Assembly: GCA_963840885.1 (NCBI GenBank)
Contig: CAWJAN010000006.1
Coordinates: 46,601-110,600, forward strand
Direction of reading: 5' to 3'
Length of the DNA stretch: 64,000 bases
Origin: an uncultured bacterium
GTDB taxonomy: Bacteria; Patescibacteriota; Minisyncoccia; Phycocordibacterales; GWA1-40-21
Translations under genes and position numbers: made by a program
Part shown: positions 250 through 21,645 of the stretch, piece by piece
Position numbering within the stretch: position 1 is the first letter of the stretch
Layout of the letters: the number at the start of each line of letters is the position of its first letter
The notes under the pieces: generated by a model
Databases searched by the model: none
The model's input: the letters and a program-made list of their open reading frames with translations, nothing else
What the model was told of the DNA's origin: nothing

Positions 250-1941
250 CTACGCGTCAATATCCCAATTGACTACGCCGTTTTTTACATCCATTACCGG
301 AGAAGAAAATACTTCCGTATACGATTCATCATCGTTTTTCTTGTCTATCTTTATGTGATACCTGCCTTTAGGGACAAGGATGTAATAGCGTCCGAATTTG
401 TCGGCGACTTTCTTTGCTATCGGAGATTCTTGTCCTTCCATGAATATGTTTATCAGCGCAAATGACAAAGGAAGTCCGTTTGATTTTTCCAGCAGAGTTC
501 CTGCTTTCTTTGTCTTGAATACGACAAAATTAAGTAGATACACCGTGACATATGTTCCGGCAATTATTAAATTATAAGGGGCGGGGACAAAGATAAGGCC
601 TATAAGAGCGACGAAAGCGCCTATGACAAAAAGCGTATCGGAAATCTTGGCCCAAAGAACAGTACCCGCTCTTGTAAATGAAGTCATATTGGCGCGGTTT
701 TTGGCAAATTCATTCCAGTCGAATTTAAGCGGATCCATAGGAATATTTTTTGTTATGATTTCTCCTTCCGCAGTTACGGTTATTTCATCCCCAAAATATA
801 GATCATTGTATACGGCATCGTATAAAGAACCCTTCATCTTCATGGACGGGAAACTGTAATTGGTTTTCTGACCAAGAATCTTATATTTTCCCGGCTTTAC
901 CAAAAATCCGTATCTGCCATCGAGATCTGTGATTGCCGTAGAAACTGTTTTGCCCGTTGCCGCATCGGTCAAGGAAACATAAGCCGGATCAAGAGGCCGT
1001 TTCGTAATTGCATCATAAACCGTTCCCCAGGGCCGCGCCTTCTTCTTGAGGCCGAATAATTCAACCATCAGATCGAAAATCCTGAACAGAATCATCCATA
1101 TATCGGAAAGGGCGGCTTGGCTTGTAAGGATTATTGTCAAGATTGAAGCTGTAACTCCTGCAATAATGCCTATTGTAGAAATTGTCTTGGTGACAATAGA
1201 GCCTATTTTTGTATTTACTATATTTTTAATCTGTCCGATTAATTGGCTTATGCCAGAAATCGAATTGGAAGTTCCTTGTGAAGGTTGAGACGGCGAAGAA
1301 GGCGGCGCTTGGGTTTGTGTGGATTGCGCCGGAGGCGCTGCCTGCTGATTCTGCCCGGATGCGGGCGACGAGGACTGGGATGTATTATTCGATCCGGAAG
1401 AAGATGGCTGCGTCACTACCGGCTGGGCTGGCGGCTGAACAGGACTTCCTACTCCGCCTCCGCCTGATGCCGGCGGAGTTGAAGTTGATGAAGTTGAAAC
1501 TGTCGGGCGCCAATCAGTTTCCACATCGCAATTGCTGCAATCGAATGTAAGTATTCCTATCAAAGTTCCGGTTGCCTGTCCGCTGAATTTTCCCGTCGAA
1601 GTATTTATAGAAACTCCGGAAAAGCTTATCCAGCCTATATTGTCTCCCCAAGCTGTTCCGGAAAGATTCCCTTCTCCGTCGTTAATTACTCCGCCATTTG
1701 CTGGCGCAAAATTAATCCAGCCGTAATTTTCCGACCAAGCCGAGCCTGTGACGGCTGAATCAGTAATGGATAATCCGCCATTTGACGGAGCGAAATTCAC
1801 CCATCCTATTTCATTGCTCCATGCGGCACCTTTTCCTGAAAGAATCGTTCCTGTCGACGCGCTAACGGCCATCGGCATTGCAAAAACGGCAAATAAGAAA
1901 AGTGATATATATGTCTTATAAAAAATTGTAAAACGATTCAT
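250..1941 (-). CDS. Secreted surface protein of 563 aa. It has an N-terminal signal peptide, tandem ~20-aa 'GxAWSxxxGWINFAP' repeats and a P/S/Q-rich linker. Its conserved C-terminal multi-TM anchor module is paralogous to the C-terminus of the 10763..15079 product.
   Basis: ORF track. The signal peptide reads MNRF..AVSAS. The repeats are visible as AWSNEIGWVNFAP, AWSENYGWINFAP and AWGDNIGWISFSG. The last ~300 aa are about 75% identical to the C-terminus of the 1438-aa protein, including KKK(A/Q)R(P/K)WGTVYD, TDLDGRYGFLV, NIPMDPLKFDWNEFAKNRANM and GRYYIL. Confidence 0.8.
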   Translation of the reverse strand: MNRFTIFYKTYISLFLFAVFAMPMAVSASTGTILSGKGAAWSNEIGWVNFAPSNGGLSITDSAVTGSAWSENYGWINFAPANGGVINDGEGNLSGTAWGDNIGWISFSGVSINTSTGKFSGQATGTLIGILTFDCSNCDVETDWRPTVSTSSTSTPPASGGGGVGSPVQPPAQPVVTQPSSSGSNNTSQSSSPASGQNQQAAPPAQSTQTQAPPSSPSQPSQGTSNSISGISQLIGQIKNIVNTKIGSIVTKTISTIGIIAGVTASILTIILTSQAALSDIWMILFRIFDLMVELFGLKKKARPWGTVYDAITKRPLDPAYVSLTDAATGKTVSTAITDLDGRYGFLVKPGKYKILGQKTNYSFPSMKMKGSLYDAVYNDLYFGDEITVTAEGEIITKNIPMDPLKFDWNEFAKNRANMTSFTRAGTVLWAKISDTLFVIGAFVALIGLIFVPAPYNLIIAGTYVTVYLLNFVVFKTKKAGTLLEKSNGLPLSFALINIFMEGQESPIAKKVADKFGRYYILVPKGRYHIKIDKKNDDESYTEVFSSPVMDVKNGVVNWDIDA

Positions 1942-1944
1942 ATT

Positions 1945-4900
1945 TTAATTTCCAGAATCCGTGCTTGATGCTGTCGTATCTGTCGATGTTGCATCCGATG
2001 ATGAGTCTGCCGTATCGGTTGATGTCGCATCCGACGATGTCGCCGTATCATCGGTAGATGTCGCAAGTGATGCATCATTTGAAGACGTATCCGAAGTCGA
2101 GGTTGATACGATCGAATCATCCGTACTTGTCGAAGCATCGTCTGAAGAAGTAGTTGAAGTTGAAGTGGATGTCGCTATAGTATCGCTGCTTGATGTGCTT
2201 GTGGTTGTTGTACTTGCATCGTCGGTGCTTGATGCATCAGACGACTGAATTTCCGTAGTATCGCTTGCTACTGAATCGGATGATGAAATTTGGATCGAAC
2301 TGGTTGATTGCAATTGGCAGGCGCCGACCACATTCGTAAGTATGCCATTGCTTATTATGATGCAATACGGCTGGCCAGTAATCTGATCATACATGGTAAT
2401 TCCTTCCGGACTCTGGCTCGTGCCAATCGCGATTCCGGTAAGATGCGCTAAGCCGTCTCCCACCGAAGATATAAACGATCCGATTTCCTTGACTGCATTG
2501 ACGAGTGCAGCAATGATTGGTCTGTCAGCAAGAGTGAGATATCCTCTGGAATCAGTTGCCACTGCTTCGGGTATTACTGATTGAACATTTTGTGCAGAAA
2601 AGCCGGTGTATTGATTTGTCATATCAAGGCCGCTTATGGCATTCCAATGATAGTTGATAGGAGTAAGTCCCTTAACCGCATCTAAGCCAAGAGTGAAATC
2701 ACCATCAATATTTTTCAATCGTTCATCGGAAGAAACTGTAACATTACCTAAAGAATCGGTTATGAGCGTTGCTCCGGCACTGCCTAAGGAAGAAAATTGC
2801 AAAGTTCCGGAAACTGTAAGTAAAGCCGACGGAGTTGAAGTGCCTAGGCCGACATTGCCATAAGTAATCAGTCCTGTATCTAAACTGAATACTCCATTAT
2901 CCAAAGTAATGCTTTTTGTTATGGAAGATGTGGCGGCTGGCGGAGTAAACATCCCGCTTGACGTAAACGTATGAACTGTATAAGCGCCATCATGAGTAAT
3001 GGTTCCTCCGGTTCCGTCTCCGCTCACTGGAGTCAAATATCTGATGATTACGACGCCAGAGCCTCCGGCTCCGCCGGTTCCATTCGCAGCCGCTCCTCCT
3101 CCGCCTCCGCCTCCTGTATTTGTGGTTGCATCGCTTCCGCTTGAAGCTCCTACATAACCTCCGGCTCCGCCTCCGCCATTTCCGCCGTCGCCTGCAGGGC
3201 TTGGACCGCCGTCATATCCGCCTCCTCCTCCGCCGCCGCCATAATATGTAGGGGTTCCTGAAATTGAACTTGATGTTCCGACTCCTCCTGCGGGATCATT
3301 TGAACCGGTGCTATCAGTTCCGGCTGCTCCGGCTCCTCCTCCTCCCGATCCTTGGGGATTGCCTCCTGGATTATCTCCTCCTTTATTTCCCTGGCCAGCG
3401 GTTCCCGCAGAACCTGTTCCTCCGGAACCGGCTTCACCTCCTCCAGAACCTCCGGTATTTCCTGAACCTCCATAACTGCCTCCGGCTCCTCCGCCAATTG
3501 CTGTAATGCTTAGAATTGAAGAATCATCTCCATTGTTTCCTGGACTGCCTCCATCACCGACGGTAATGGTCTGAGAGCCGACTATGTCAGTTGTCGTAGA
3601 GACGACTCCTCCCGCTCCTCCTCCGCCTCCGCCGTTTGATCCTCCACCTCCGCCTCCGGCAACCGCGAGAATATCAAATGATGAAATGAGTGATGAACTT
3701 GCAATTCCCGACAATCCTAAAGAAGAATTTGAAACGATATCGCCTGATGCATAAACATTTCCAGCAACATCAAGAGCTTCGGAAGGAGTTGAGGTTCCAA
3801 TTCCTACATTTCCAAGATCATAATAGATATCTGAGCTTGTTGAAGTCCACTGTGATGATCCGCCGCTTGACGTTGTCGCTACTACATTTCCGTTTGAATC
3901 GACAGCGAGCAAGGTGTTTGAGAGCCCTGAAATATTTAAAGATGGAGTTACTATTCCAGAATCAAAATTAAATAAACTACTAGATGATGTTAATGAAATA
4001 TACTTAGTATTAACAGCAGAACCTGCAGGCGCCACAAAAGTCCCGCTTGACGTAAACGTATGAACTGTATAAGCGCCATCATGAGTAATGGTTCCTCCGG
4101 TTCCGTCTCCGCTCACTGGAGTCAAATATCTGATGATTACGACGCCAGAGCCTCCGGCTCCGCCGGTTCCATTCGCAGCCGCTCCTCCTCCGCCTCCGCC
4201 TCCTGTATTTGTGGTTGCATCGCTTCCGCTTGAAGCTCCTACATAACCTCCGGCTCCGCCTCCGCCATTTCCGCCGTCGCCTGCAGGGCTTGGACCGCCG
4301 TCATATCCGCCTCCTCCTCCGCCGCCGCCATAATATGTAGGGGTTCCTGAAATTGAACTTGATGTTCCGACTCCTCCTGCGGGATCATTTGAACCGGTGC
4401 TATCAGTTCCGGCTGCTCCGGCTCCTCCTCCTCCCGATCCTTGGGGATTGCCTCCTGGATTATCTCCTCCTTTATTTCCCTGGCCAGCGGTTCCCGCAGA
4501 ACCTGTTCCTCCGGAACCGGCTTCACCTCCTCCAGAACCTCCGGTATTTCCTGAACCTCCATAACTGCCTCCGGCTCCTCCGCCAATTGCTGTAATGCTT
4601 AGAATTGAAGAATCATCTCCATTGTTTCCTGGACTGCCTCCATCACCGACGGTAATGGTCTGAGAGCCGACTATGTCAGTTGTCGTAGAGACGACTCCTC
4701 CCGCTCCTCCTCCGCCTCCGCCGTTTGATCCTCCACCTCCGCCTCCGGCAACGACAAGCACATCCACTTGAACAGATGATTGGCTTAGTTTTAAAAATTG
4801 ATCGGAAAATACCGGCATTCCATTCTTATAAAAATCTGCTGCATTAACAATGCCGTTTACATCAAGAGGATATGCTGGAGTTGAAGTTCCTACACCCACT

Positions 4901-7900
4901 GAACCATCTGATGAAACATAGAGTACAGATTGGCTTGAGGAAGAAACGAAGTTGGCAATGGCTCCTCCGTCTATAGCGTCAATTTCAAATTGAGCGGTTG
5001 GTATAGTCGTTCCTAATCCAATGTGTCCGTCCCCTCCTATAAAAAATAATGACTGACTCGATGATGAAACAAAATTGGCAATGTTATTGCTATCCTTTCC
5101 ATCGATTTCAAACATGCCGATGGGATTCATAGTGCCTATGCCGAAATTTCCCAATAAATATGATGAGGAAGATGAAGTGACCGCAAGAGAACCGTTCGTA
5201 GTAAAACCAATCGAATTAAAGAAATCATTGCCGAGATCGATAACGGTAATATCATTACTACCAAAAGCGCCAACGTATGCGTGATTGCCGAATACTGCGA
5301 GACCCTGTGGAGCAGCTCCGGCTCCTACCGAGTCAAGGGTAATTGGATTTGTAGAAGATGATATATCAACTACAGACATGGTTCCTGATTCAGCATTAAC
5401 TAAATAAGCATAATTGCCTGAGACAGAGATATCCTGAGGATTAATATCAACAGTAGTTGTGGCTATCTGTATTGGATTGGAGGAAGATGAGATGTCAAAA
5501 ACTGCCATTTGGCCTAATGTGGAATGGCTATCAATATACTGATACGACGTGTACAAATACGAACCTGATACAACCATGCAGCTAGGATTGGAACCTGCGG
5601 GAGTTGTGGTTGTGGCAACGAGTACCGGATTACTAGAAGATGAAATATCAAATGTAGAAATAGAATCTGGAATAGTGCCGCTGCCCAAGTTTCCCCAGTT
5701 AGCTTCATATAAATAATTATTGTCAGCAGACATGGCAAGACCGAAAGCCTGATTTCCCCCGTCTGAAACTTTGGTTATGAATACGGGATTTGTGCCGGAT
5801 GTGATATCAAAAACTGAAACGCTGCTGACTGTGGAATCCGATTCTGGAGGATTCTCTTGATTCGAAATATACAAGTAGGAATGGTTATTCTCTTTCTTTA
5901 TGACCATTTTTTGAGAATATCCGCCCTGTGTGCTAAAAGTCGTAATTGATTTTGGAGATTTTGGAGAAGATATGTCAATAACACTTACGGTGGAATCTCC
6001 GCTGTTAAGTACATATAAATAATTATTGATGACTTGTATATCTTGGGGAAAACTTCCAACGGCGATAGCGGCGACCTCAACGGGAGATGCTGTATTTGAG
6101 TTATCAAAAATAGATACGCTGCCTCCTTCATTGTTTGTCGCATATAAATACTTACCGTAAACCGTTACATCAGTAGGACCGGCCCAATATTCATAAAGAA
6201 AATTCTCGATGCCTGGCGTATTGCCTTCATCGTATACTATCGAGGTGCTTGCGGTATAAACCGCATGATTGGAGAAATTAGGATCATCGACAACCACTCT
6301 ATAGCCGTCAACACCGGAAACTGCATTCCAGGATACGTCGATTGCATATGGACCGCTTGAAGTGCTGGTAAATGGTATATCAACATAATTTTGGGAAGGA
6401 ACTTTTATGCCATTGATGAGCTTATAGCCATAAACTTTGAAATCATAATCTCCAATATACGTTAAGGTTCCCGTAGCTTCATCATCGAGAGCGTCACCGA
6501 TTCCTGTTGGGCTTGGAACAATATATGCTGTGCCGCCTTGTGCAGTACCTATATCAGCTGGCGACAAAGATGAGTAGTTGATTCCGGTAATATAATTGGA
6601 TATAGATCCTGAAATGGTTAAGCTTGCATCGGGTGTGGAAGTACCGATTCCGACATTGCCGACAGAGTAATAAATATTTGAGCTTGTTGAAGTCCACTGG
6701 GAGGATCCGCTCGGGGCTGTTGTTGCTGTCACATTTCCATTTGCGTCCACCGCAAGAAAAGTATTGGAAAGATTTGAAATATTCAAACCTTGTGTGGTTG
6801 AGGTACCAACAACCGATAGTGCAGTTGCAGGAGTTGTTGTACCTATGCCTAAATTTCCTGCAAAATATGAAATTGTATTTGTTCCTGAAACGGATATTGC
6901 GCCGTTTGAAAGTATTCCTCCAGACCCGACTGAAAGAGTTGTTCCTACATTCAAGAAATCCTGGATATTAATTCCCCTGCTTACATTTACAGTTCCAGCC
7001 TCAATCGAACCGGCTTCAAGACCTTCTGCTGTAATGCCGCCGATGTCTACAACTGATATGGAACCTGCCGCAAAAGTATCTGAATTGAATTCGCTATTGG
7101 CAGAATATACATAATTTCCTGAAACGGCGACGCCTTGGCACCAAGTGCTGGTTTTTATGTTTCCAATAAGGTATGGGGACAGCGGATTGGAAATATTTAT
7201 GACTGATATGGAATTATCTTGCTGATTTGCAGTGTAGGCATAATCTCCGGAAACTGTGATATCTATAGGTGCAGCGCCGGAACCAACTGTCGTAGTGGCA
7301 ACAGGGAAAGGAGCATACGGATTTGAAATATCTACGACAGACATGGAATCGCCTTGGAAATTTGCCACGTATGCATAGCTGCCGGAAACAGAAATACTTG
7401 TCGGGACATATCCCACAGTCGTAGTGGCAATTTCCACCGGAGAATGAGGATTTGAAATATCCACTACTGAAATGGTGGTGCCGCGCACGCCGGTCAAATC
7501 GCCGCCGTTTGTAACATACGCATAGTTGCCGGAAATTGCTATGCCGGCAGGGCCGAATCCTACTGTCGTAGTAGCAATAATCGATGGAGCATAAGGATTT
7601 GAAATATCAAATACAGAAATAGTATTTCCATCGCCACTTAAGCCGCCGTCGGTCACGTATGCGTAGTGTCCGGAAATTGCTATGCCTGCCGGATATGTTC
7701 CGTATACCGATGATGTTGCAATAAGCTTTGGATCTGATGGATTGGCGACATCCATGACAGAGATATCGTGATCAAATTCACCATTATTTACTACATAAAC
7801 ATAGTGTCCTGATTTTGCGAGGCCTATAGATGAGGCGCCACCTACTGTCGTAGTAGCAATCTGCCGAGGAGCGGCAGGATTTGAAATGTCGACGACAGCG

Positions 7901-10686
7901 AATGGATTGGCTCCGGGTTCAAGTGGATTCGTACCTGGATCACCATTTGCGCGATTATCATAATTGCTCGAAACATAAGCATAATGACCGTCTATAATAA
8001 TATTTTGCGGATATAATCCGACAGATGTGGTTGCAATCTGAGAAATGTGATTAAAATCGCTATAGCTTGAGATTGCTCCGTTTACGGTCAGGACATTTTC
8101 CGGAGTCGTGGTGCCGATGCCGACATTTCCGCTTGAAGCTATGTACAAAGCGGAACGGCTGGAAGGCGATATAAAATTAGCAATATCGCTTGTCGATGAA
8201 CCGAAAACCTCCAAGCTAGCAGGCTGATTTATGGCGCTTGTATTTACAGACATGAAATTATTGTTCGGGCCAATGGCTGCAAAATAGTTTCCGCCGAAAG
8301 CTATGGCGTTCAACGGCGTAGATTCTGTAAAACTTTTTGTTGTCCAATCATTGCCATTTAAAGATTCACCGAATTCTTCGGGATTTCCGACTGCTATAAA
8401 CGTGCCGTTGCCATATGCAATGGAACTCCAAGAATCAATTGTAGGTGAATTGCCTAGAGACCAATTTATTCCGTCAGAAGAAGTGGCAAACCTGTTATGG
8501 CCTAAGGAATCGCTTCCTATAAGAATAAACATATTGTTGCCATAAACAATGGCCGTTCCACTGTTCATGGGTGATGGCACGTTTTCTGCAGTCCAGTTTA
8601 TTCCATCTGAAGACTCAATCGTATGCGAGTTATTGTTAGTTCCGACAAAAATTCCATTTGCATAAATGAAAGATGACCAGTTGGCTGCTGATGTTGGAAG
8701 ACTGCTTGTGGCCCAGTTAATACCGTCCGAAGAAGTGGCGAATTGATCGCCGCCCAGGGCGACAAACATGCCGTTGCCGTATGCAATTTGCCAAGCCCAA
8801 GTAAAATACGACGGATGCGGAGGCGGCATAGTTCCGCCAGTCCAGCTTATACCATCAGAAGAAACCGCTACATGATCACCGTTTGTACCAGCAGCTATAA
8901 ATTTACCATTCCCGTATATTAACGTTTCCCAATAATCTGATTCCGGCATGGTTCCTGATGTCCAATTTATTCCGTCGGAAGAGATTGCCAAATTGCTGCC
9001 ATTGCCGGTCGCTACAAATTTGCCATTTCCGTAGGCAATAGCGAGCCAATCGCTATTGGAGACAGGGAGAGTTCCCGTAGCAAGATTGCTTCCTTCAATA
9101 GGCTCGTGAGAATTGCCTGCTTTCACTCCGCCGGAATCATAATAAATATTCGAGCCTGAGGTCGTCCACTGTGAAAGAGACGAGCTTGCGGTAAAAACAT
9201 TCCCATTTGAATCCACACTAAGTAAGCCGCTTGAAATACCGGGAAGGGTTAATCCGAATAATGTGGTTGTTCCGGTAACGGATAGTGCTGACTCAGGTGT
9301 TGTAGTGCCGATACCTATGCGGCCGTCAGCGCCAATATAGAATACTGAAGCGGATGTCGATGAGAAAAAACTGGCGATTGTGCTTGTTCCTTGCCCGAAT
9401 ACCTGGAATGTATATGCGCCAGATGATGTTGTGGTGGATGTTGTGGTAGTGGAAATCCTTACAACAGAAATATCGCTGTCATCATCATTTGCGGTATAGG
9501 CATAATCGCCGGAAATAGCGATATCGAGCGGAAAACTGCCTACTGAAACTGTCGCACTCACTGATGGAGATGAAGGGCTGGAAATATCCAAGACTGAAAT
9601 CGTATCATCGCTACCATTCACAAGATAGGCATGCGTGCCGGAAATAGCAATGCCGCGGGGATGATTTCCAACGTTCACATCGGCAATATCGCTCGGCGAA
9701 AGCGGATTTGATATATTGATGACAGAAATCGCATCACTATTAACATCGGCTACATAGGCATAATTGCCGGAAATCGCTATGCCGTATGGGCTAGATCCCC
9801 CAGGAAGCACTGCTGTAGTGACCTCAACCGGAGCAAGCGGATTTGAAATATCTACAACGGAAACATCATCATCATCGGAGTTGGTCACATAGGCATAGTT
9901 GCCGGAAACAGCAACATCAAGAGGTGAACCGCCGACCGAAGTCGTAGCAACTTGAATTGGAGCAAGCGGATTTGAAATATCTATAACAGACATTATACTA
10001 TCGGACTCATCAGCAATATAAGCGTAATTACCGGATATTGCGATGCCTAGAGCCGTATCATAATTATTCGGATCATTACCAACAGTCGTCGTAGCGACTT
10101 GGACAGGAGCTGAAGGATTTGAAACATCAATGACAGAAAGATTGCTTGCGCCATTTGTAACATATGCATAGTTGCCGGAAACTGCGACATAGTATGAGTA
10201 ATCACCTGAATCACCTACGCTCGTCGTGGCTGTCTCGATTGGAGAGAGAGGATTTGAAACATCAAAAATGGAAAATACCGCATTGCAATTATCGGCAACA
10301 TAAACATGGTCACCTGAAGCCGCAATCCCCCATGGGCATGCATTGCCATTGTCTGTCTGAGCCGTGGTGTTTTCAACAGGAGACGCAATATAATCTACTG
10401 TCGTGGTAGAGCCGGTAGTAAAAAATGAATTCGTCGATGTGCCGACAGCAAAGTTTCCTACATTGAAAAGATTCTGATTATTTAAATCGATTGTAGATGT
10501 AGCTCCTGTAAAAGGTATAAATGTGGAAAAAAGGCTCACGCCGCAGTTCGATGTTCCCATCACGCAATCCGGATTCAGCGTTTCACCAGGAGTATAAACC
10601 GAAGCAGAAGCAAAAGTAAAAAATGCAAATATGAAATATATTGCAAATAATACAGAAGAAGTGAATTTTCTAAAGGAAATATTCAT
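1945..10686 (-). CDS. Giant secreted repeat protein of 2913 aa. It contains several blocks of LVIVD-type beta-propeller repeats, tail-fibre-like 'NVGIGTSTP' repeats and a duplicated Gly-rich module. A C-terminal intramolecular-chaperone/autoprocessing domain (peptidase S74-like) is followed by an S/T/D-rich tail.
   Basis: ORF track with an N-terminal signal peptide. Recurring LVIVD signature YAYV(A/T)...SVxDISNPxxPxxxATTxVG appears more than 20 times. 'LAVDxNGNVxATTxxSGSSQWTSTSSNIYYxxGNVGIGTSTP' appears at least three times. The C-terminal segment SDERLKNIDGDFTLGLD..INYHWN..TGFSAQNVQSVIPEAV..PIIAALVNAVKEI matches the endosialidase/tailspike chaperone-domain consensus (SDxRLKxNI...Y.W...GfiAQEV..V.PE.V...ALv.AiKEL). 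Confidence 0.9.
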   Translation of the reverse strand: MNISFRKFTSSVLFAIYFIFAFFTFASASVYTPGETLNPDCVMGTSNCGVSLFSTFIPFTGATSTIDLNNQNLFNVGNFAVGTSTNSFFTTGSTTTVDYIASPVENTTAQTDNGNACPWGIAASGDHVYVADNCNAVFSIFDVSNPLSPIETATTSVGDSGDYSYYVAVSGNYAYVTNGASNLSVIDVSNPSAPVQVATTTVGNDPNNYDTALGIAISGNYAYIADESDSIMSVIDISNPLAPIQVATTSVGGSPLDVAVSGNYAYVTNSDDDDVSVVDISNPLAPVEVTTAVLPGGSSPYGIAISGNYAYVADVNSDAISVINISNPLSPSDIADVNVGNHPRGIAISGTHAYLVNGSDDTISVLDISSPSSPSVSATVSVGSFPLDIAISGDYAYTANDDDSDISVVRISTTTTSTTTSSGAYTFQVFGQGTSTIASFFSSTSASVFYIGADGRIGIGTTTPESALSVTGTTTLFGLTLPGISSGLLSVDSNGNVFTASSSLSQWTTSGSNIYYDSGGVKAGNSHEPIEGSNLATGTLPVSNSDWLAIAYGNGKFVATGNGSNLAISSDGINWTSGTMPESDYWETLIYGNGKFIAAGTNGDHVAVSSDGISWTGGTMPPPHPSYFTWAWQIAYGNGMFVALGGDQFATSSDGINWATSSLPTSAANWSSFIYANGIFVGTNNNSHTIESSDGINWTAENVPSPMNSGTAIVYGNNMFILIGSDSLGHNRFATSSDGINWSLGNSPTIDSWSSIAYGNGTFIAVGNPEEFGESLNGNDWTTKSFTESTPLNAIAFGGNYFAAIGPNNNFMSVNTSAINQPASLEVFGSSTSDIANFISPSSRSALYIASSGNVGIGTTTPENVLTVNGAISSYSDFNHISQIATTSVGLYPQNIIIDGHYAYVSSNYDNRANGDPGTNPLEPGANPFAVVDISNPAAPRQIATTTVGGASSIGLAKSGHYVYVVNNGEFDHDISVMDVANPSDPKLIATSSVYGTYPAGIAISGHYAYVTDGGLSGDGNTISVFDISNPYAPSIIATTTVGFGPAGIAISGNYAYVTNGGDLTGVRGTTISVVDISNPHSPVEIATTTVGYVPTSISVSGSYAYVANFQGDSMSVVDISNPYAPFPVATTTVGSGAAPIDITVSGDYAYTANQQDNSISVINISNPLSPYLIGNIKTSTWCQGVAVSGNYVYSANSEFNSDTFAAGSISVVDIGGITAEGLEAGSIEAGTVNVSRGINIQDFLNVGTTLSVGSGGILSNGAISVSGTNTISYFAGNLGIGTTTPATALSVVGTSTTQGLNISNLSNTFLAVDANGNVTATTAPSGSSQWTSTSSNIYYSVGNVGIGTSTPDASLTISGSISNYITGINYSSLSPADIGTAQGGTAYIVPSPTGIGDALDDEATGTLTYIGDYDFKVYGYKLINGIKVPSQNYVDIPFTSTSSGPYAIDVSWNAVSGVDGYRVVVDDPNFSNHAVYTASTSIVYDEGNTPGIENFLYEYWAGPTDVTVYGKYLYATNNEGGSVSIFDNSNTASPVEVAAIAVGSFPQDIQVINNYLYVLNSGDSTVSVIDISSPKSPKSITTFSTQGGYSQKMVIKKENNHSYLYISNQENPPESDSTVSSVSVFDITSGTNPVFITKVSDGGNQAFGLAMSADNNYLYEANWGNLGSGTIPDSISTFDISSSSNPVLVATTTTPAGSNPSCMVVSGSYLYTSYQYIDSHSTLGQMAVFDISSSSNPIQIATTTVDINPQDISVSGNYAYLVNAESGTMSVVDISSSTNPITLDSVGAGAAPQGLAVFGNHAYVGAFGSNDITVIDLGNDFFNSIGFTTNGSLAVTSSSSSYLLGNFGIGTMNPIGMFEIDGKDSNNIANFVSSSSQSLFFIGGDGHIGLGTTIPTAQFEIDAIDGGAIANFVSSSSQSVLYVSSDGSVGVGTSTPAYPLDVNGIVNAADFYKNGMPVFSDQFLKLSQSSVQVDVLVVAGGGGGGSNGGGGGGAGGVVSTTTDIVGSQTITVGDGGSPGNNGDDSSILSITAIGGGAGGSYGGSGNTGGSGGGEAGSGGTGSAGTAGQGNKGGDNPGGNPQGSGGGGAGAAGTDSTGSNDPAGGVGTSSSISGTPTYYGGGGGGGGYDGGPSPAGDGGNGGGGAGGYVGASSGSDATTNTGGGGGGGAAANGTGGAGGSGVVIIRYLTPVSGDGTGGTITHDGAYTVHTFTSSGTFVAPAGSAVNTKYISLTSSSSLFNFDSGIVTPSLNISGLSNTLLAVDSNGNVVATTSSGGSSQWTSTSSDIYYDLGNVGIGTSTPSEALDVAGNVYASGDIVSNSSLGLSGIASSSLISSFDILAVAGGGGGGSNGGGGGGAGGVVSTTTDIVGSQTITVGDGGSPGNNGDDSSILSITAIGGGAGGSYGGSGNTGGSGGGEAGSGGTGSAGTAGQGNKGGDNPGGNPQGSGGGGAGAAGTDSTGSNDPAGGVGTSSSISGTPTYYGGGGGGGGYDGGPSPAGDGGNGGGGAGGYVGASSGSDATTNTGGGGGGGAAANGTGGAGGSGVVIIRYLTPVSGDGTGGTITHDGAYTVHTFTSSGMFTPPAATSSITKSITLDNGVFSLDTGLITYGNVGLGTSTPSALLTVSGTLQFSSLGSAGATLITDSLGNVTVSSDERLKNIDGDFTLGLDAVKGLTPINYHWNAISGLDMTNQYTGFSAQNVQSVIPEAVATDSRGYLTLADRPIIAALVNAVKEIGSFISSVGDGLAHLTGIAIGTSQSPEGITMYDQITGQPYCIIISNGILTNVVGACQLQSTSSIQISSSDSVASDTTEIQSSDASSTDDASTTTTSTSSSDTIATSTSTSTTSSDDASTSTDDSIVSTSTSDTSSNDASLATSTDDTATSSDATSTDTADSSSDATSTDTTASSTDSGN
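2941..4763. repeat. Tandem direct duplication inside the giant gene. The period is 1089 bp, and about 734 bp are nucleotide-identical (2941..3674 and 4030..4763).
   Basis: Identical sequence blocks are visible, for example ggttcctccggttccgtctccgctcactggagtcaaatatctgatgattacgacgcc at 2999 and 4088. Two byte-identical spurious plus-strand ORFs sit at 3150..3497 and 4239..4586, offset by 1089 bp. The encoded identical segment is about 245 aa, running from AGGGGGGSNGG to GVVIIRYLTPVSGDGTGGTITHDGAYTVHTFTSSG. Confidence 0.9.
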
Positions 10687-10762: not shown

Positions 10763-13700
10763 TTACACCACCAAATTCTCATTCACAATCCCTCCTTTCA
10801 GGTCTACAACGGGAGATTTGAAGGCTTCCGTGTAAGATTCATCATCGTTCTTCCTATCGATCTTCAGATAGTATCTTCCTTGGGGGAGAAGGATGTAATA
10901 TCTGCCGTATTTGTCTGCGATTTTCTTGGCGATAGGAGAATCATCCTGGCCTTCCCTGTAGATCTTGATTACTGCAAATGAGAGCGGCAGGCCTGTTTTG
11001 GAATCCTTGATCGTTCCAGCTTTCTTCGTCCTGAAGACGACATAGTTCAGGAGATACGCGATGACATAGAGGCCGGCAACGATGAGGTTGTAAGGCGCTG
11101 GAGCGAAGATGAGGGCGATGAGCGCGACGAAAGCGCCGATGACGAAGAGCAGATCATATATCCTTGACCAGATTACTGTGGAACCTTTGGTGAAAGTATT
11201 CATGTTTGCCCTGTTCTTGGCGAACTCGTTCCAGTCGAATTTCAAAGGATCCATCGGGATATTCTTGGTGATGATTTCTCCGAGAGATCCGATGACGAGC
11301 TCTTCTCCGTGATAGAGGTCGTTGTAAACGTCGTCGAATGTGCCGAGAATCTTCTTTGACGGGAAAGAATAGTTGGTCTTCTGGGCCATGATCCTGTACT
11401 TGCCGGGCATTACGAGGAATCCGTATCTGCCGTCGAGGTCCGTGATTGCGGTGGCTGCGGTTTTGTTGGTCGCGATATCGATGAGCGTCACGTAAGCCGG
11501 ATCGAGAGGACGCTTCGTTACGGAATCATATACTGTTCCCCATTTTCTCTGCTTTTTCTTCAGGCCTAAGGATTCGGATAGCAAGCCGAAGAATCTTGCC
11601 GGTATGGTCCAGGTTTCAGACCAGGTCAGGGGGTTAACGAAAAGAAGCGCGGCTGAATATGCGATGCCTCCGATGACAAGGCCGACGGTCGAGATTACTT
11701 TGACCACTATGGAACCGACAGGATCGTTTACGGTAGAGCTTGCCATTCTGATTATTGGATTTAATGTATCCGATATTCCCTTGATGGCATTGTTGAAAGA
11801 TTGAGAATTCGATACTGGTGCCGTTGGTGCGGGAGTTGGAGTCGGAGTTGGCGCAGGTGCTGGAGTTGGCAAAGGTGTTGGCACAGGAGTTGGCAAAGGT
11901 GTTGGCGTAGGGGTTGGTGTCGGAGGTTCAGGAGGAACGACTGGAAGAGGTTCGGTCTGGCATCCGAGGATGTCATTGGCTTTCTTCCTTGAATAGTATC
12001 CGAAGTTTCCTGTTCCGCTTGAAAGTCCGTATGGAGAGAGGATGTCGCTTGCATATGCGTTCTGGAAATTGGTGACTGAATCTGCAGTTACTGTTCCGTA
12101 ATATTCCATCTCGGAACCTAGTGTTTCCGGACCGCTTGTGGCCTGATCGAATCCGTTGGTGTTCAGGAATATCTGGAGATCCTTAACGTCAGGATCAGAT
12201 GTTCCCGGCATGAGGTTCTTGGTGAAGCAGAATCCTTTAGGCAATGTCGGAGGGATGATTACTGGAGGGGTTGAGGTTGCAGGCGTGGTTGTTGCGGGGG
12301 TGGTGGTTGGAACGATAGGAGGTTCGGTTGAACCGCCGGATGGGCCTGTATATGGAGGCAAAACCGGTGTAGGCAGAGTCGTGGTTGCTCTTCTTCCGTG
12401 TGGACGATGGGGAAACAGCCAGTTGACGTCTGAGCCTCCGTCTACACAGCCGTTAGTGCAGTCGAAGGCGTCAGCGGAAAGATTGGTTGAGCCTGAGACA
12501 TCTAAAAATGAAAATGAAGATGTGCCTGAACCGGTTTGCAGTATATTGAAAGGAACTATAGCTGGTGGAGAAAACTTTTGAACATCGCCGCCATTATGCC
12601 CGTAGTCGGCAACATATATATTGTTATTCGAATCAACCGTTAATTGCGTAGGATTGGAAAATTGTCCATCGCTAGTCGTGCCGAATGTGCCGAATTGGCT
12701 AATCAATGAAAGATCCGAATCAAGCTTAACGACATTATGATTGCCTGAATCGGATACATATAAATATCCGTTTGAATCTACGGCTACGCCGTATGGTGAG
12801 CTGACATCTGTATATGAAGAAACGTAAGAAAGGTCGGATACATTAAATTTTACGATTCGATTATGCCCAGTATCGGCAAGATAAATAAAAGTTCCCGCCG
12901 GATCAACGGCGAGCGAACCGCTAGTCGAATTAAAGCTGAAACCTTGGCTGTTGGCGGAAGTGGTTGATGCAATAAGGTTAAAATTTGAATCCAATTTCAA
13001 TATTCCGCCGGTTGGGCCGTAATTGCTGGTGACATATATATTGCCGGATGAATCAACGGCAATGCCTCCGGAAATACCGGTGCTCTGAACTGATGGAATC
13101 GTAGTGATATCCGGGGAAGATATCAAAAAATTACCGCTGGGATCAAATTCCATAATTTTATTACTCGATCCGTTCGCTACGTACAAATTATCCGAAATAT
13201 CAGTGGATAATTGCACCGGATCAGAAAGCGAACTTGTCGCAATGGTGTTTATCAAATTGCCGGAACTGTCGAATTCTTTTATATAATTTCCAAAATAATC
13301 CGAAACATAGATATTATCTGCCGAATCATGGGCTACTCCAAAGGTTAAGCTAAGCGATGATAACAATTCGCTATTAAATTGAGGAATGGAAGCCCCTCCA
13401 GTATTTATTGAAAGAAGATTGCCAGAGCTTCCGGACAGAGAAATGCTGCCGGATATGGTTGTCGTGGCAGTCTGATCGAATAAAAGCGATGAGCCCGATG
13501 ATGAAAACTTGGTCAAATTAGGAAATGTGTTTGAACCGGAAATGGTTTGGGAGGATGTTCCTGTAAAATTAACCGTGCCTGAAGAGCTTGCGCTCGTATC
13601 TTCAAGTATTCCGCCTGTATTCGACCAATTGCCATAAACATTCAGTATATATCCGTTTAAATCAAGAGTTCCTCCGTCTACTAAAACAAGACTGCGAATA

Positions 13701-15079
13701 TTTTCATCCTGATAAAGTGTGACTGTTCCGGTGCTTATCGTCGCATCACTCGTCTCATCTGTCGATGTCGATATAAAATTTATTGCTCCCCCACCTGTTA
13801 TAAGCGTTCCGCCGGTGTTTATAAAATTCCACCAATGGCCGCTAAAATTTAATGTGTAAGATGACAGGTCTAGCGTTCCTCCGGATGCCAAAATAAGGCT
13901 ATTAACATTTTGATCTTGGGTCAGGTCGATAGTCCCAGTATTTATAGTTGCGCTGTCGGAAGATCCAGGAAAATCAATGCCTTCAACGGGAACATACCCT
14001 GATGGAAGCACGAGTCCGTTATAGGTGGTCGAAGCGGTGCCGTCCGGATTAACGACGGTTATATTATTGTTATGAGCATCGGTAACATAAATATATCCTG
14101 ATGTCGTGAGAGCCATACCAAAAGGCTGAGAAAATCCGAATGAAGAATAAGTTGTCGAAGCGGTGCCGTCCGGATTGTAGACCACGATACGATGCGATCC
14201 ATTGGATTCCAATGCGTATATATCTCCCGATGAGGAGAGTGCCACGTTTTCAGGGACGAAAAGTCCGCTGCCGTTATAGCTTGTCGAAGCGGTGCCGTCC
14301 GGATTTAAGATATCAATGCGGTTATTCGAAGCATCGGCAACATATATTTCTCCTGAAGGCGAAAAAGTTATGCCGAAAGGATATATCGGAGCCAGGCTTC
14401 CTCCGTCATAGCTTGTGGATGCTGTGCCGTCCGGATTTAAGATGACAATTCTGTTATTGCCTTCATCGGATACATAAATATCTCCGGATGGGGAAACTAT
14501 TACGTATCTAATATTGCTAAAAGGGGCCAGGCTTCCGCCGTTATAGCTTGTCGAAGCGGTGCCGTCCGGATTTAGGACAACGATTCTATTATTTGAAGCG
14601 TCTACTATGTACATTTCTCCTGACGGTGAGAGATTTATTCCTACGGGACCGATTGGAGCCAAGCTTCCGCCGTTATAGCTTGTGGATGCTGTGCCGTCCT
14701 GGTTCAGGACTACTATTCTATTATGTCCGTTATCAGCTATGTATATTTCTCCAGAGGTAGATGAAATCGCCAAATTATAAGGAGCGCTAAAACCAATTAA
14801 TCCTCCGTTTGTTCCCCAGGTAGTGGTGCTATTCCAGTCACCGCCTGAGCTTGTGTTGAAGGCGGTTGAAAAATTATTGCTGGAATTTGAAACGAATATC
14901 TTTTTAAAATTTTCGTTAGAAAATAAAAAAACTGCTGAAATTATTAAAATTATGAGTAGGAATATTGAAATAAATCCTGCTGGTTTCGCCTTTATTTCTG
15001 TAAATTTCATTTGGTGGATTAGGATTATTATTGCTACGGTGTTTATTATAATAGATTTTATAATAAAGACACTAATCAC
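10763..15079 (-). CDS. Large secreted surface protein of 1438 aa. It has two blocks of NHL-type beta-propeller repeats, a PT-rich linker and a putative peptidoglycan-binding-like segment. The conserved C-terminal multi-TM anchor module is shared with the 250..1941 product.
   Basis: NHL repeat signature SPSGE(I/M)Y(I/V)(A/S)DxxNNRIV(V/I)LNPDGTASTSY appears at least six times, and a second block reads IYVSDYFGNYIKEFDSSGN / LYVADTGHNRIVKF / LYVSDSGNHNVVKL. The linker is PTPTPTPTPLPTPVPTPLPTPAPAPTPTPTP. 'DVKDLQIFLNTNGF...YYGTVTADSVTNFQNAYASDIL' resembles a PG_binding_1 domain. The C-terminal module aligns with the 563-aa protein. Confidence 0.9.
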   Translation of the reverse strand: MISVFIIKSIIINTVAIIILIHQMKFTEIKAKPAGFISIFLLIILIISAVFLFSNENFKKIFVSNSSNNFSTAFNTSSGGDWNSTTTWGTNGGLIGFSAPYNLAISSTSGEIYIADNGHNRIVVLNQDGTASTSYNGGSLAPIGPVGINLSPSGEMYIVDASNNRIVVLNPDGTASTSYNGGSLAPFSNIRYVIVSPSGDIYVSDEGNNRIVILNPDGTASTSYDGGSLAPIYPFGITFSPSGEIYVADASNNRIDILNPDGTASTSYNGSGLFVPENVALSSSGDIYALESNGSHRIVVYNPDGTASTTYSSFGFSQPFGMALTTSGYIYVTDAHNNNITVVNPDGTASTTYNGLVLPSGYVPVEGIDFPGSSDSATINTGTIDLTQDQNVNSLILASGGTLDLSSYTLNFSGHWWNFINTGGTLITGGGAINFISTSTDETSDATISTGTVTLYQDENIRSLVLVDGGTLDLNGYILNVYGNWSNTGGILEDTSASSSGTVNFTGTSSQTISGSNTFPNLTKFSSSGSSLLFDQTATTTISGSISLSGSSGNLLSINTGGASIPQFNSELLSSLSLTFGVAHDSADNIYVSDYFGNYIKEFDSSGNLINTIATSSLSDPVQLSTDISDNLYVANGSSNKIMEFDPSGNFLISSPDITTIPSVQSTGISGGIAVDSSGNIYVTSNYGPTGGILKLDSNFNLIASTTSANSQGFSFNSTSGSLAVDPAGTFIYLADTGHNRIVKFNVSDLSYVSSYTDVSSPYGVAVDSNGYLYVSDSGNHNVVKLDSDLSLISQFGTFGTTSDGQFSNPTQLTVDSNNNIYVADYGHNGGDVQKFSPPAIVPFNILQTGSGTSSFSFLDVSGSTNLSADAFDCTNGCVDGGSDVNWLFPHRPHGRRATTTLPTPVLPPYTGPSGGSTEPPIVPTTTPATTTPATSTPPVIIPPTLPKGFCFTKNLMPGTSDPDVKDLQIFLNTNGFDQATSGPETLGSEMEYYGTVTADSVTNFQNAYASDILSPYGLSSGTGNFGYYSRKKANDILGCQTEPLPVVPPEPPTPTPTPTPLPTPVPTPLPTPAPAPTPTPTPAPTAPVSNSQSFNNAIKGISDTLNPIIRMASSTVNDPVGSIVVKVISTVGLVIGGIAYSAALLFVNPLTWSETWTIPARFFGLLSESLGLKKKQRKWGTVYDSVTKRPLDPAYVTLIDIATNKTAATAITDLDGRYGFLVMPGKYRIMAQKTNYSFPSKKILGTFDDVYNDLYHGEELVIGSLGEIITKNIPMDPLKFDWNEFAKNRANMNTFTKGSTVIWSRIYDLLFVIGAFVALIALIFAPAPYNLIVAGLYVIAYLLNYVVFRTKKAGTIKDSKTGLPLSFAVIKIYREGQDDSPIAKKIADKYGRYYILLPQGRYYLKIDRKNDDESYTEAFKSPVVDLKGGIVNENLVV

Positions 15080-21105: not shown

Positions 21106-21645
21106 TTATTTCTTATCGTAAACAAGCGTTATGGAAAAATTGGCATTAGTATTATTTATAAGATACGATACCGGCAGATCGACGTTCGTGAAAGTTCCAT
21201 CATCCACTAGAGCTTTATTGAAAGACGTGAGATCGTCTCTTGTGGACGCTATTCCTGATATTGTTATTTTCTGCGAATTTCCCGCGGCAGCTGATATGGA
21301 GAAAGAAGATATGGATATATTATTATTTTTTAAAGAAATTATTTTATCTATAATGCCGCTATCGGAAATATTTGCCGTATCTCTCTCCAGAATATCCGCC
21401 ATACTATTCAGCTTTTTGACCAGCGCAACGACATCGTTATTGCTTTTGGAGGCCAGCGACTCGGTTATATCAAGCTGGTTTGCCACCGTCTTGCTTTCAT
21501 ATTTAGAAAAGATAGCAGAAGGTATGAAAAGAAGTATGAGGAGGAACAGGCCGAGAAAAACCGCCACGAGAAGAAATATGAGGCCTCTTAATATATATTC
21601 GAGCGTTACCTGTCTCTTATTTTTTTGTGGCAGAAAATCAAGCAT
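21106..21645 (-). CDS. PilN-like type IV pilus assembly protein (putative).
   Basis: N-terminal MLDFLPQKNKRQ (INLLP-like motif) followed by a single TM helix and a periplasmic domain. It overlaps the pilM-like gene by 8 bp, indicating an operon. Confidence 0.5.
   Translation of the reverse strand: MLDFLPQKNKRQVTLEYILRGLIFLLVAVFLGLFLLILLFIPSAIFSKYESKTVANQLDITESLASKSNNDVVALVKKLNSMADILERDTANISDSGIIDKIISLKNNNISISSFSISAAAGNSQKITISGIASTRDDLTSFNKALVDDGTFTNVDLPVSYLINNTNANFSITLVYDKK

Follow-up and report, generated by a model that had tools for sequence, protein, structure and literature searches.

An unbroken open reading frame on the minus strand of the 64-kb window (the whole stretch of DNA analysed) encodes a protein of 2913 aa, an identical copy of which is already on record (cluster look-up). 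Around this gene lie genes for surface and membrane proteins, tRNA genes and housekeeping genes: the window carries 11 scattered tRNAs together with genes for MsrA, an RluA-type protein, PilM/N, RuvX, RecJ, TIM, Fpg, a Mur ligase and RNase Y, and contains no structural genes of a phage or injection system. Other listed proteins have 72-88% identity to the RNase Y, and those with an organism name belong to Patescibacteria/Paceibacterota. This context bears out the sequence-only reading of the locus, which had taken the product for a chromosomal, cellular surface protein. A prophage origin was rejected on the context; the base composition of the locus is unremarkable. The stop codon of the gene is in frame with the ATG of the next gene (TAA AAT ATG); readthrough or fusion was considered, and the match was treated as coincidence, since the next ORF opens with its own typical signal peptide. 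The features of the gene are listed from the N-terminus to the C-terminus of the product:

1945..10686 (-): whole gene, with its stop codon, for a secreted mosaic surface protein of 2913 aa (ORF list and translation)
10600..10686 (-): signal-peptide-like N-terminal segment, residues 1-29 (MNISFRKFTSSVLFAIYFIFAFFTFASA, followed by SV; hydropathy scan)
9442..10389 (-): LVIVD-repeat β-propeller 1, residues ~100-415, approximate boundaries (Pfam LVIVD and Lactonase; DNA repeats)
9295..9324 (-): stalk motif 1, GRIGIGTTTP, residue 455 (motif count)
8197..9099 (-): SSDG(I)(N/S)W-motif repeat module, residues ~530-830, approximate boundaries (read from the translation)
8101..8130 (-): stalk motif 2, GNVGIGTTTP, residue 853 (motif count)
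7042..8049 (-): LVIVD-repeat β-propeller 2, residues ~880-1215 (Pfam, DNA repeats, comparison with relatives)
6829..6858 (-): stalk motif 3, GNLGIGTTTP, residue 1277 (motif count)
6631..6660 (-): stalk motif 4, GNVGIGTSTP, residue 1343 (motif count)
5167..6219 (-): third LVIVD/lactonase-like propeller, residues ~1490-1840 (Pfam SBP56 and Lactonase stretches; phrog_19989)
4876..5151 (-): stalk motifs 5-7, residues 1846, 1887 and 1928, three 41-aa units in tandem
4126..4776 (-): glycine-rich domain 1 (PF21722), residues 1971-2187 (Pfam, phrog, AF2)
3784..3813 (-): stalk motif 8, GNVGIGTSTP, residue 2292 (motif count)
3037..3687 (-): glycine-rich domain 2, residues ~2334-2550, near-identical tandem copy of domain 1 (DNA repeat)
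2731..2901 (-): last stalk unit before the predicted cut, residues 2596-2652, with motif 9 (GNVGLGTSTPSALLTV) and then LQFSSLGSAGATLITDSLGNVTVS
2713..2730 (-): catalytic motif S2653-D-E-R2656-L-K2658 (translation, alignments, spacing)
2452..2730 (-): intramolecular chaperone/S74 domain, residues 2653 to ~2745, with a C-terminal helix at 2721-2743
2314..2415 (-): post-chaperone 2-Cys β mini-domain, residues ~2758-2791, with C2775 and C2790 (GITMYDQITGQPYC2775IIISNGILTNVVGAC2790)
1948..2313 (-): S/T/D-rich low-complexity tail, residues 2792-2913, lacking LPXTG or a membrane anchor (composition, hydropathy)

In a hydropathy scan, residues 1-29 form the sole hydrophobic segment of the protein, and none follows after residue 30. 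The first 110 aa are common to only 6 of 259 relatives. Propeller 1 matches Pfam LVIVD over 10 stretches (E 2.4e-76) as well as Lactonase, and its region carries the DNA repeat families D1-D5. The SSDG(I)(N/S)W module, which recurs in only 2 of the 259 relatives, is probably a propeller, too. Glycine-rich domain 1 is recognized by PF21722 (E 1.1e-33), a family for which a literature search returned no mention, and by phrog_2295 (E 5e-83); its AF2 model has a pLDDT of 90.7, and the fold weakly matches the tail tip of phage Bxb1 (prob 0.95) and the fibre of Pam3. When the glycine-rich alignment was searched as a profile against the PDB, the sole match was a low-complexity one to Snf7, which was disregarded. 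The tandem copy of this domain is visible in the DNA, where 2944-3676 and 4033-4765 are 98.6% identical at an offset of 1089 nt. Among the 259 relatives, the chaperone is shared by 255 and the stalk by 113, each globular module by only 2-10. The relatives thus form a mosaic family with shuffled globular modules.

Tail-fibre-like "NVGIGTSTP" repeats and a glycine-rich module upstream of the chaperone had been noticed before; we count nine stalk motifs of the GxVGIGTxxP type (G-N-V-G-I-G-T-x-x-P) and two glycine-rich domains. At the sequence level, all nine motifs match one described for mosaic adhesive trimer (MAT) fibres of Bdellovibrio, V-G-(G/N)-x-x-x-P-x-x-x-L, which forms the capping loop of a β-helix and is shared with MyRF (PMC10769870). 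A profile of the C-terminal module matches crystal structures of MAT fibre tips, 8ojn (Bd3182, E 1e-4), 8ond, 8oml and 8ol4; these matches run through the stalk motif, and the stalk of MyRF was matched as well. Units that resemble the last stalk unit occur near residues 491, 1313 and 2262, where each is followed by SQW and not by a chaperone. Within the last unit, an alignment of 19 sequences shows no variation at D2644, G2647 or N2648; the last stalk segment has a pLDDT of 54-78 in the monomer model.

The C-terminal domain is an intramolecular chaperone of the S74 type, as the sequence-only reading had proposed. PF13884 (Peptidase_S74, Pfam-A) aligns to residues 2653-2709 over profile positions 1-57 of 58, scoring 38.2 bits (E 1.8e-9) with the whole protein and 41.7 bits (E 1.4e-10) with the last 351 aa alone, above the gathering cut-off of 22; no NCBIfam model matches these 351 aa at E<=0.001. 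The predicted monomer has the fold of the chaperone, a β core and a C-terminal helix, and continues past the 57 aa covered by Pfam through the helix that ends near residue 2743; the original figure of ~140 aa was a fair estimate. Structural alignments with phage chaperones of this type give sequence identities of 13-19%, and the chaperone is 50-70% identical to proteins of Patescibacteria versus 30-35% to phage tail fibres. Within SDERLK, the Ser, Asp and Lys do not vary among the 19 aligned sequences and reach at least 90% conservation in an alignment of 121; the Arg is nearly invariant in the smaller alignment. S2653 (codon tcc, 2730-2728) is the predicted nucleophile and K2658, at +5, the predicted base, with R2656 as the Arg at +3. 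The catalytic Ser-Lys dyad expected of such a domain is therefore present, with the spacing of S587/K592 in MyRF, S911/K916 in endoNF and S1264/K1269 in T5.

The interval 1945-2730 that had first drawn attention to the domain spans exactly the codon of S2653 through the stop codon. Cleavage had been placed at the Ser-Asp junction, with a product beginning at the Asp. A C-terminal piece of ~260 aa would still be expected, but the bond is probably one residue off: T5 pb1 is cut between Thr1263 and Ser1264, with the Ser departing together with the chaperone, K1F is cut N-terminal to the Ser in the same way according to the T5 paper (PMC4690869), and MyRF is cut between P586 and S587 (PMC8326128). 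By analogy, the scissile bond here is most likely S2652-S2653, and the released piece of ~261 aa would probably begin at S2653 (SDERLK...), because T5, K1F and MyRF are all cut N-terminal to the Ser. In MyRF, the catalytic residues are S587, R590 and K592, with S587/K592 equivalent to S911/K916 of endoNF (PMC8326128). In endoNF and T5, an Arg from the β-helix of the neighbouring chain (Arg897 and Arg1250, respectively) couples cleavage to correct folding of the helix (PMC8326128; PMC4690869). The 40 residues before S2653 contain neither Arg nor Lys. Coupling without an upstream Arg would have to be MyRF-like or make use of the invariant D2644/N2648.

Two further elements follow the chaperone. 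The 2-Cys mini-domain has three predicted strands (block pLDDT ~79-87) and is present in 53 of the 259 relatives; among 221 relatives, exactly two Cys follow the chaperone in 130, none in 89 and one in 1. The S/T/D-rich tail, previously put at 120 aa, measures about 122-123 aa (34% S, 26% T, 16% D), and the closest relatives, P0122, P0124, P0126 and P0131, have anchorless tails of like type. The 2-Cys module and the tail are left unexplained by a plain phage model.

Taken together, the protein is probably a mosaic fibre of the cell surface, exported via Sec by a Paceibacteria-type (Patescibacteria/CPR) bacterium and matured by the route of phage tail fibres; we infer its trimerisation, cleavage, release and adhesive function from homology. 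The S74 chaperone (2653 to ~2745) would gather three chains and template the short triple-β-helix stalk unit that directly precedes it. It would probably do the same for the eight similar stalk motifs; the globular modules, namely the three LVIVD-type propellers, the SSDGINW-repeat module and both glycine-rich domains, would be carried between the stalk units. After trimer formation, the Ser2653/Lys2658 dyad would cut the chain at S2653, most likely between S2652 and S2653, and the C-terminal piece of ~261 aa, comprising the chaperone, a disulfide-bonded 2-Cys mini-domain and the S/T/D tail, would dissociate. The mature fibre would then end in a glycine-rich domain and a β-helix tip, and it would likely serve to adhere to another cell or to recognise one, by analogy with the MAT fibres of Bdellovibrio. 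Whether a fibre that is trimeric over its full length could accommodate the large β-propellers is uncertain. If the signal peptide is cleaved, no feature apparent in the sequence would account for the mature fibre staying on the cell.

A MyRF-like sequence of events, in which the C-terminal extension holds nascent chains at the membrane or wall for trimerisation and self-cleavage then frees the tip or sheds the whole fibre, appears unlikely for this protein, although the layout of some relatives speaks for it. Seven close relatives (P0123, P0127-P0130, P0132 and P0133; E 1e-73 to 1e-60) share the chaperone, the 2-Cys module and an S/T-rich linker; behind the linker come a (G/S)A(T/S)V(F/L)(G/N/D)A motif, which is conserved, then a transmembrane helix and finally a basic tail. 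S74 thus has the ectodomain on one side and a membrane anchor at the C-terminus on the other, an arrangement shared with MyRF; moreover, a tail rich in S/T/P/D/E/N follows the chaperone in 110 of 164 long-tailed relatives. However, the 2913-aa protein and its closest relatives P0122, P0124, P0126 and P0131 have no anchor, LPXTG or hydrophobic segment after the chaperone, and anchors of this sort are rare, being present in 7 of 133 long relatives and at 1 of 79 genome loci. Nor do sorting-signal models give an above-cut-off match on the anchor of the relatives; LPXTG-anchor and PEF-CTERM models match its TM/basic part below threshold.

It is less probable still that S74 is kept uncleaved as a permanent C-terminal trimerisation cap, with the S/T/D tail remaining in the mature protein. 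The absence of the upstream Arg that triggers cleavage in endoNF and T5 would fit such a cap, as would the long post-chaperone extension, which is conserved in type and would be odd for a discarded piece. On the other hand, Ser, Asp and Lys are conserved over the 121 relatives and the Arg at +3 is nearly invariant among the 19 aligned sequences; conservation of the Ser/Lys dyad is hard to account for without catalysis, and the S74 domains with an intact dyad tested to date all cleave (PMC10769870; PMC8326128; PMC4690869). Finally, S74 domains are typical of tail fibres of phages and contractile injection systems (eCIS), and both phrog_2295 and the glycine-rich domain are found in phages, but a tail fibre gene of a phage, prophage or contractile injection system is highly improbable here, given the flanking housekeeping genes and tRNAs without structural genes of such a particle in the 64-kb window, the predicted N-terminal signal peptide and a best phage match of 34% identity versus 50-70% for many paralogues in Patescibacteria genomes.

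The S74-matching family comprises about 17,000 protein clusters at 50% identity, many members being giant (up to 6467 aa), and Patescibacteria genomes carry many paralogues each; some relatives are labelled "tail fiber domain-containing protein" by NCBI. Membrane-module genes such as those flanking the present gene were rejected as regular partners of S74 genes: their C-terminal module is found in none of 80 related loci, and just 4 of these 80 have the N-terminal part of the downstream gene close to an S74 gene. Literature searches found no papers that join S74 or intramolecular chaperones with Patescibacteria or CPR. A preprint describes all cultivated Patescibacteria as obligate episymbionts and their host recognition as largely unknown. 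The present gene belongs to a family of phage-like, self-processing mosaic fibres that is very large and has many paralogues in these organisms, which makes the fibres reasonable candidates for host-binding structures, a role shown for the MAT fibres of Bdellovibrio. We further suggest, tentatively and as a doubtful possibility, that patescibacterial S74 fibres constitute a lineage-specific class, in which the chaperone is followed by a disulfide-bonded 2-Cys mini-domain, an S/T-rich linker of wall-spanning type and, in a few relatives, a membrane anchor resembling a sorting signal. The C-terminal piece would provide a temporary tether that brings three chains together at the envelope, so that they can trimerise, and is later cut. 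If true, such a class would parallel the MyRF topology in bacteria and outside the cell, and the paralogous mosaic fibres would be the organelles by which these episymbionts recognise their hosts, similar to MAT fibres. For the present locus, the value lies mainly in annotation: the mature protein is predicted to end at S2652, and its distal end, the glycine-rich domain and β-helix tip, is the place to look for ligand binding.

Among known systems, phage proteins with this chaperone (CIMCD/ICA; MEROPS S74; PF13884), such as K1F endoNF, the T5 L-shaped tail fibre pb1 and the GA-1 neck appendage, share the domain, and endoNF and T5 pb1 also the spacing of the Ser/Lys dyad. However, they are only 13-19% (structural alignments) or 30-35% (best phage proteins) identical, and the present protein lacks the upstream catalytic Arg, is cellular, has a signal peptide and carries an extra C-terminal extension. 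The ICA domain of MyRF (7dc3) is cytoplasmic and has a DNA-binding domain on one side and an anchor in the ER membrane on the other, and its cleavage frees a transcription factor, whereas the 2913-aa protein is predicted to be extracellular and lacks an anchor C-terminal to the domain, which a few relatives do possess. Another close likeness is to the S74 subgroup of the MAT fibres of Bdellovibrio bacteriovorus, which are also chromosomal, signal-peptide-bearing surface proteins with the capping-loop motif in their β-helix stalks and with swapped globular modules; a conserved β-rich domain of ~130 aa right after the signal peptide defines MAT fibres (PMC10769870). Bd3182, a cellular S74 fibre with an SDxxxK motif like the one described here, cleaves itself at S782, and cleavage is abolished by S782A (Caulton et al. 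2024, PMC10769870). With 2913 aa against roughly 1000, the present protein has about three times the length; it carries LVIVD propellers and glycine-rich domains as passengers, it belongs to Patescibacteria, and its chaperone is followed by the 2-Cys mini-domain and the S/T/D tail, whereas the S74 domain of Bd3182 (782-922) is terminal. The novelty of a cellular protein that uses the maturation of phage fibres was therefore overstated: the S74 mechanism is textbook, its cellular use has been published for Bd3182, and the domain is very common in Patescibacteria. The 2913-aa protein is an ordinary addition to an existing kind, whose design is shared by thousands of cellular proteins, with some lineage-specific extras.

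The gene for the giant surface protein is an open reading frame of 8742 nt on the minus strand (1945..10686) with a product of 2913 aa, and the feature singled out by the sequence-only reading is its 3' end. It runs from 2730, where the codon for S2653 starts (in ...GNVTVS-S2653-D-E-R-L-K2658-N-I...), to 1945, where the stop codon ends, so that the feature is exactly the C-terminal piece predicted to release itself. The elements concerned are:

Residues 2653-2709 of the giant protein: PF13884 Peptidase_S74 ('chaperone of endosialidase'), profile positions 1-57 of 58 (Pfam-A)
2314-2415, minus strand: 2-Cys mini-domain, GITMYDxxTGxPYC...G.C
3037-3687 and 4126-4776, minus strand: two glycine-rich PF21722 domains
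250-1941 and 10763-15079, minus strand: the genes flanking the giant gene

The S74-type chaperone that had been proposed at this C-terminus is real, far beyond chance: PF13884 scores 38.2 bits on the giant protein (E 1.8e-9; gathering score 22) and 41.7 bits on the last 351 aa alone (Pfam-A). The postulated Ser-Lys dyad is present as well. S2653, D2654 and K2658 are invariant in an alignment with 18 relatives (19 sequences), in which R2656 is nearly so, and at least 90% conserved in one with 120 relatives (121 sequences). An AlphaFold2 model of residues 2580-2790, computed from 121 input sequences, has a mean pLDDT of 81.4, with a chaperone core at 94-98 and a terminal 23-residue helix; in a Foldseek search against the PDB, it retrieves the intramolecular chaperone (ICA) domain of MyRF first (E 7.7e-6, prob 1.00) and the chaperone of the phage K1F endosialidase endoNF (3gw6) second. 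In profile match, catalytic residues and fold, the giant protein conforms to the S74/ICA family.

That the gene is cellular rather than viral, as initially proposed, is borne out by its surroundings: 11 tRNA genes are scattered across the window, along with housekeeping genes (cobalamin adenosyltransferase, MsrA, pseudouridine synthase, PilM/PilN, RuvX, RecJ, triosephosphate isomerase, Fpg, Mur ligase, RNase Y). A phage or prophage gene can be rejected, since phage structural genes are absent from all 64 kb. RNase Y is 72-88% identical to the other proteins listed, of which the named ones belong to Patescibacteria, Paceibacterota, Taylorbacteria or Minisyncoccia. The same-strand flanking genes encode a 1438-aa NHL-repeat/PG-binding protein and a 563-aa protein, which have in common a C-terminal module of 346 aa (63% identical) with TM segments and a CarboxypepD_reg domain; this membrane module occurs in none of 80 related loci. 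The N-terminal part of the 563-aa protein contains repeats such as WSENYGWINF and WGDNIGWISF and has homologues in 4 of the 80 (L005, L025, L043, L050). The stop codon of the giant gene is in frame with the start of the next gene (1939-1947, minus strand; TAA AAT ATG), probably by coincidence, because the next ORF has its own signal peptide. Another secreted beta-helix-type surface protein of this genome, of 546 aa (32958-34598, minus strand), combines a strong Ice_binding match (PF11999, E 4e-55) with DUF7507. Type IV pili are the attachment organelles known from cultivated Patescibacteria; in the window, their assembly genes PilM and PilN are accompanied by a 705-aa protein with PG_binding_1 and a pilus-formation N-terminal domain (21106-22690 and 25431-27548, minus strand).

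By homology, the reading best supported for the giant protein is the standard S74 pathway acting on a cellular fibre: the chaperone would trimerise and template the beta-helix directly N-terminal to it, whereupon the Ser/Lys dyad would cut the chain and the C-terminal piece would depart. This pathway has been demonstrated in phage proteins (PMC4690869), in MyRF (PMC8326128) and in Bd3182, a cellular fibre of Bdellovibrio that runs as two bands in the wild type and as one in the S782A mutant (PMC10769870). In MyRF, cleavage is abolished by S587A and K592A, residues equated with endoNF S911/K916 (PMC8326128). The initial proposal of phage-fibre-type maturation is supported overall, with the putative cut site shifted by one residue. 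A cut at the Ser-Asp junction, with a product starting at D2654, had been suggested; however, the scissile bond is Thr1263-Ser1264 in T5 pb1, where Ser departs with the chaperone, K1F is likewise reported to be cut before Ser (PMC4690869), and MyRF is cut at P586|S587 (PMC8326128), so that the predicted product starts at S2653. The Ser/Lys spacing equals that of the T5 dyad S1264/K1269, and the Ser/Arg+3/Lys+5 spacing that of MyRF S587/R590/K592. In endoNF and T5, an upstream Arg couples cleavage to helix folding, whereas the giant protein lacks a counterpart, as the 40 residues preceding S2653 contain neither R nor K. This absence and the first rank of MyRF among the structural matches suggest an active site of the MyRF type.

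The chaperone helix is followed by a small beta module with C2775 and C2790, two of only eight Cys in the giant protein. Among 221 motif-bearing relatives, exactly two Cys follow the chaperone in 130 and none in 89, with a single relative having one, a strict parity which suggests that the mini-domain is disulfide-bonded; other relatives carry a second variant, LC(L/V)DDVC(I/V)TK(D/E)(Q/E)(L/F). The S/T/D-rich tail, foreseen at 120 aa, comprises 122 aa (about 34% S, 26% T and 16% D over residues 2791-2913), and no hydrophobic segment or LPXTG was found in it. Such an extension recurs among the mostly patescibacterial relatives and is not peculiar to the giant protein: S/T/P/D/E/N exceed 55% in 110 of 164 tails of at least 170 aa. 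In seven close relatives (P0123, P0127, P0128, P0129, P0130, P0132, P0133), chaperone, 2-Cys module and S/T-rich linker are followed by a conserved (G/S)A(T/S)V(F/L)(G/N/D)A, a TM helix and a basic tail; the related genome locus L001 (about 8225-9120) is also anchored. This end resembles a sorting signal or membrane anchor, and no NCBIfam sorting-signal model matched it above its own cut-off. The N-terminus of P0127 matches HTH_17 below threshold, and that of P0133 is similar in sequence. With a self-cleaving module between ectodomain and C-terminal membrane anchor, the anchored relatives resemble MyRF, and one might imagine that Patescibacteria assemble host-recognition fibres by a 'tether, trimerise, cut' route, which we consider rather unlikely. 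Since the anchored form is rare (7/133 long relatives, 1/79 genome loci) and absent from the giant protein and its nearest relatives, the simplest view is that the tail of the giant protein is lost together with the chaperone; a passing role in tethering or solubilisation is conceivable.

Upstream, the tail-fibre-like 'NVGIGTSTP' repeats noted earlier resolve into nine copies of G-x-[VILF]-G-[VIL]-[GN]-T-x-x-P (residues 455, 853, 1277, 1343, 1846, 1887, 1928, 2292 and 2610), a motif absent from the rest of the window in all six reading frames. The ninth copy precedes the catalytic Ser by 43 residues, and the unit from there to the cut ends in (V/T)D(S/A)(N/L)GNV; it recurs at about residues 491, 1313 and 2262, followed by SQW in place of the chaperone. 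Through this motif, a profile of the C-terminal module matches crystal structures of tips of Bdellovibrio mosaic adhesive trimer (MAT) fibres (8ojn, Bd3182, E 1.1e-4; 8ond, Bd2133; 8oml; 8ol4), and through the chaperone it matches the phage tail fibre 8jov and MyRF 7dc3. The stalk units are separated by three LVIVD/lactonase-like propellers (LVIVD repeats, E 2.4e-76, ten stretches; Pfam-A), one SSDGINW-repeat module and two glycine-rich domains (PF21722, E 1.1e-33; Pfam-A), the latter accounting for the Gly-rich module of the sequence-only reading. They form a tandem duplication with a 1089-nt period (2944-3676 and 4033-4765, minus strand; 98.6% identical over 732 nt), which reflects either recent expansion or a site prone to recombination or to assembly collapse. 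The glycine-rich domain is modelled confidently (pLDDT 90.7), and its fold matches are all weak: the tail tip of mycobacteriophage Bxb1 (prob 0.95) leads, the fibre of cyanophage Pam3 (prob 0.72) comes second, and glycine-rich domains of ALK/LTK rank below these. PF21722 is very widespread (>2500 matches), with Laminin_G_3, TIG, He_PIG and pilin N-methylation as partner domains.

The S74 fibre family is mosaic: among 259 collected relatives, the chaperone is common to 255, the stalk to 113, and each globular module to 2-10. A full HMMER scan of residues 2580-2790 against 1.84 billion representative proteins returned 17,128 clusters (E<=1e-3), of which 3360 pass E<=1e-10 and 420 pass E<=1e-30, with proteins of up to 6467 aa and the chaperone near the C-terminus. 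The best 80 loci in GTDB species-representative genomes belong mostly to Paceibacterota, Kaiserbacteria, Parcubacteria and other Patescibacteria, with others in Methylocystis, Flavobacteriales, Saprospirales and Omnitrophota; many share a genome with others of the set (eight in MAG JAZKFG01, six in MAG JAQBRI01), and several encode >3100 aa upstream of the cut. Relatives already bear the NCBI name 'tail fiber domain-containing protein', and identity to phage tail fibres is only 30-35%.

The giant protein belongs to an already described kind, the fibres terminated by S74/ICA. A MyRF-like anchored protein is rejected, as the giant protein has no C-terminal membrane anchor. Its stalk motif is exactly the beta-helix 'capping loop' V-G-G/N-π-x-x-P-x-x-x-L common to MAT fibres and MyRF (Caulton et al., 2024, PMC10769870), and it has most features of the MAT concept, in a comparison that covers the fibre outside the MAT N-terminal domain. 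Giant size, LVIVD propeller passengers, the duplication of the glycine-rich tip domain and the extension of 2-Cys module and S/T/D tail are lineage-specific, and none of them alters the predicted S74 mechanism, for which self-processing in a cellular fibre has already been published with Bdellovibrio Bd3182 (PMC10769870).
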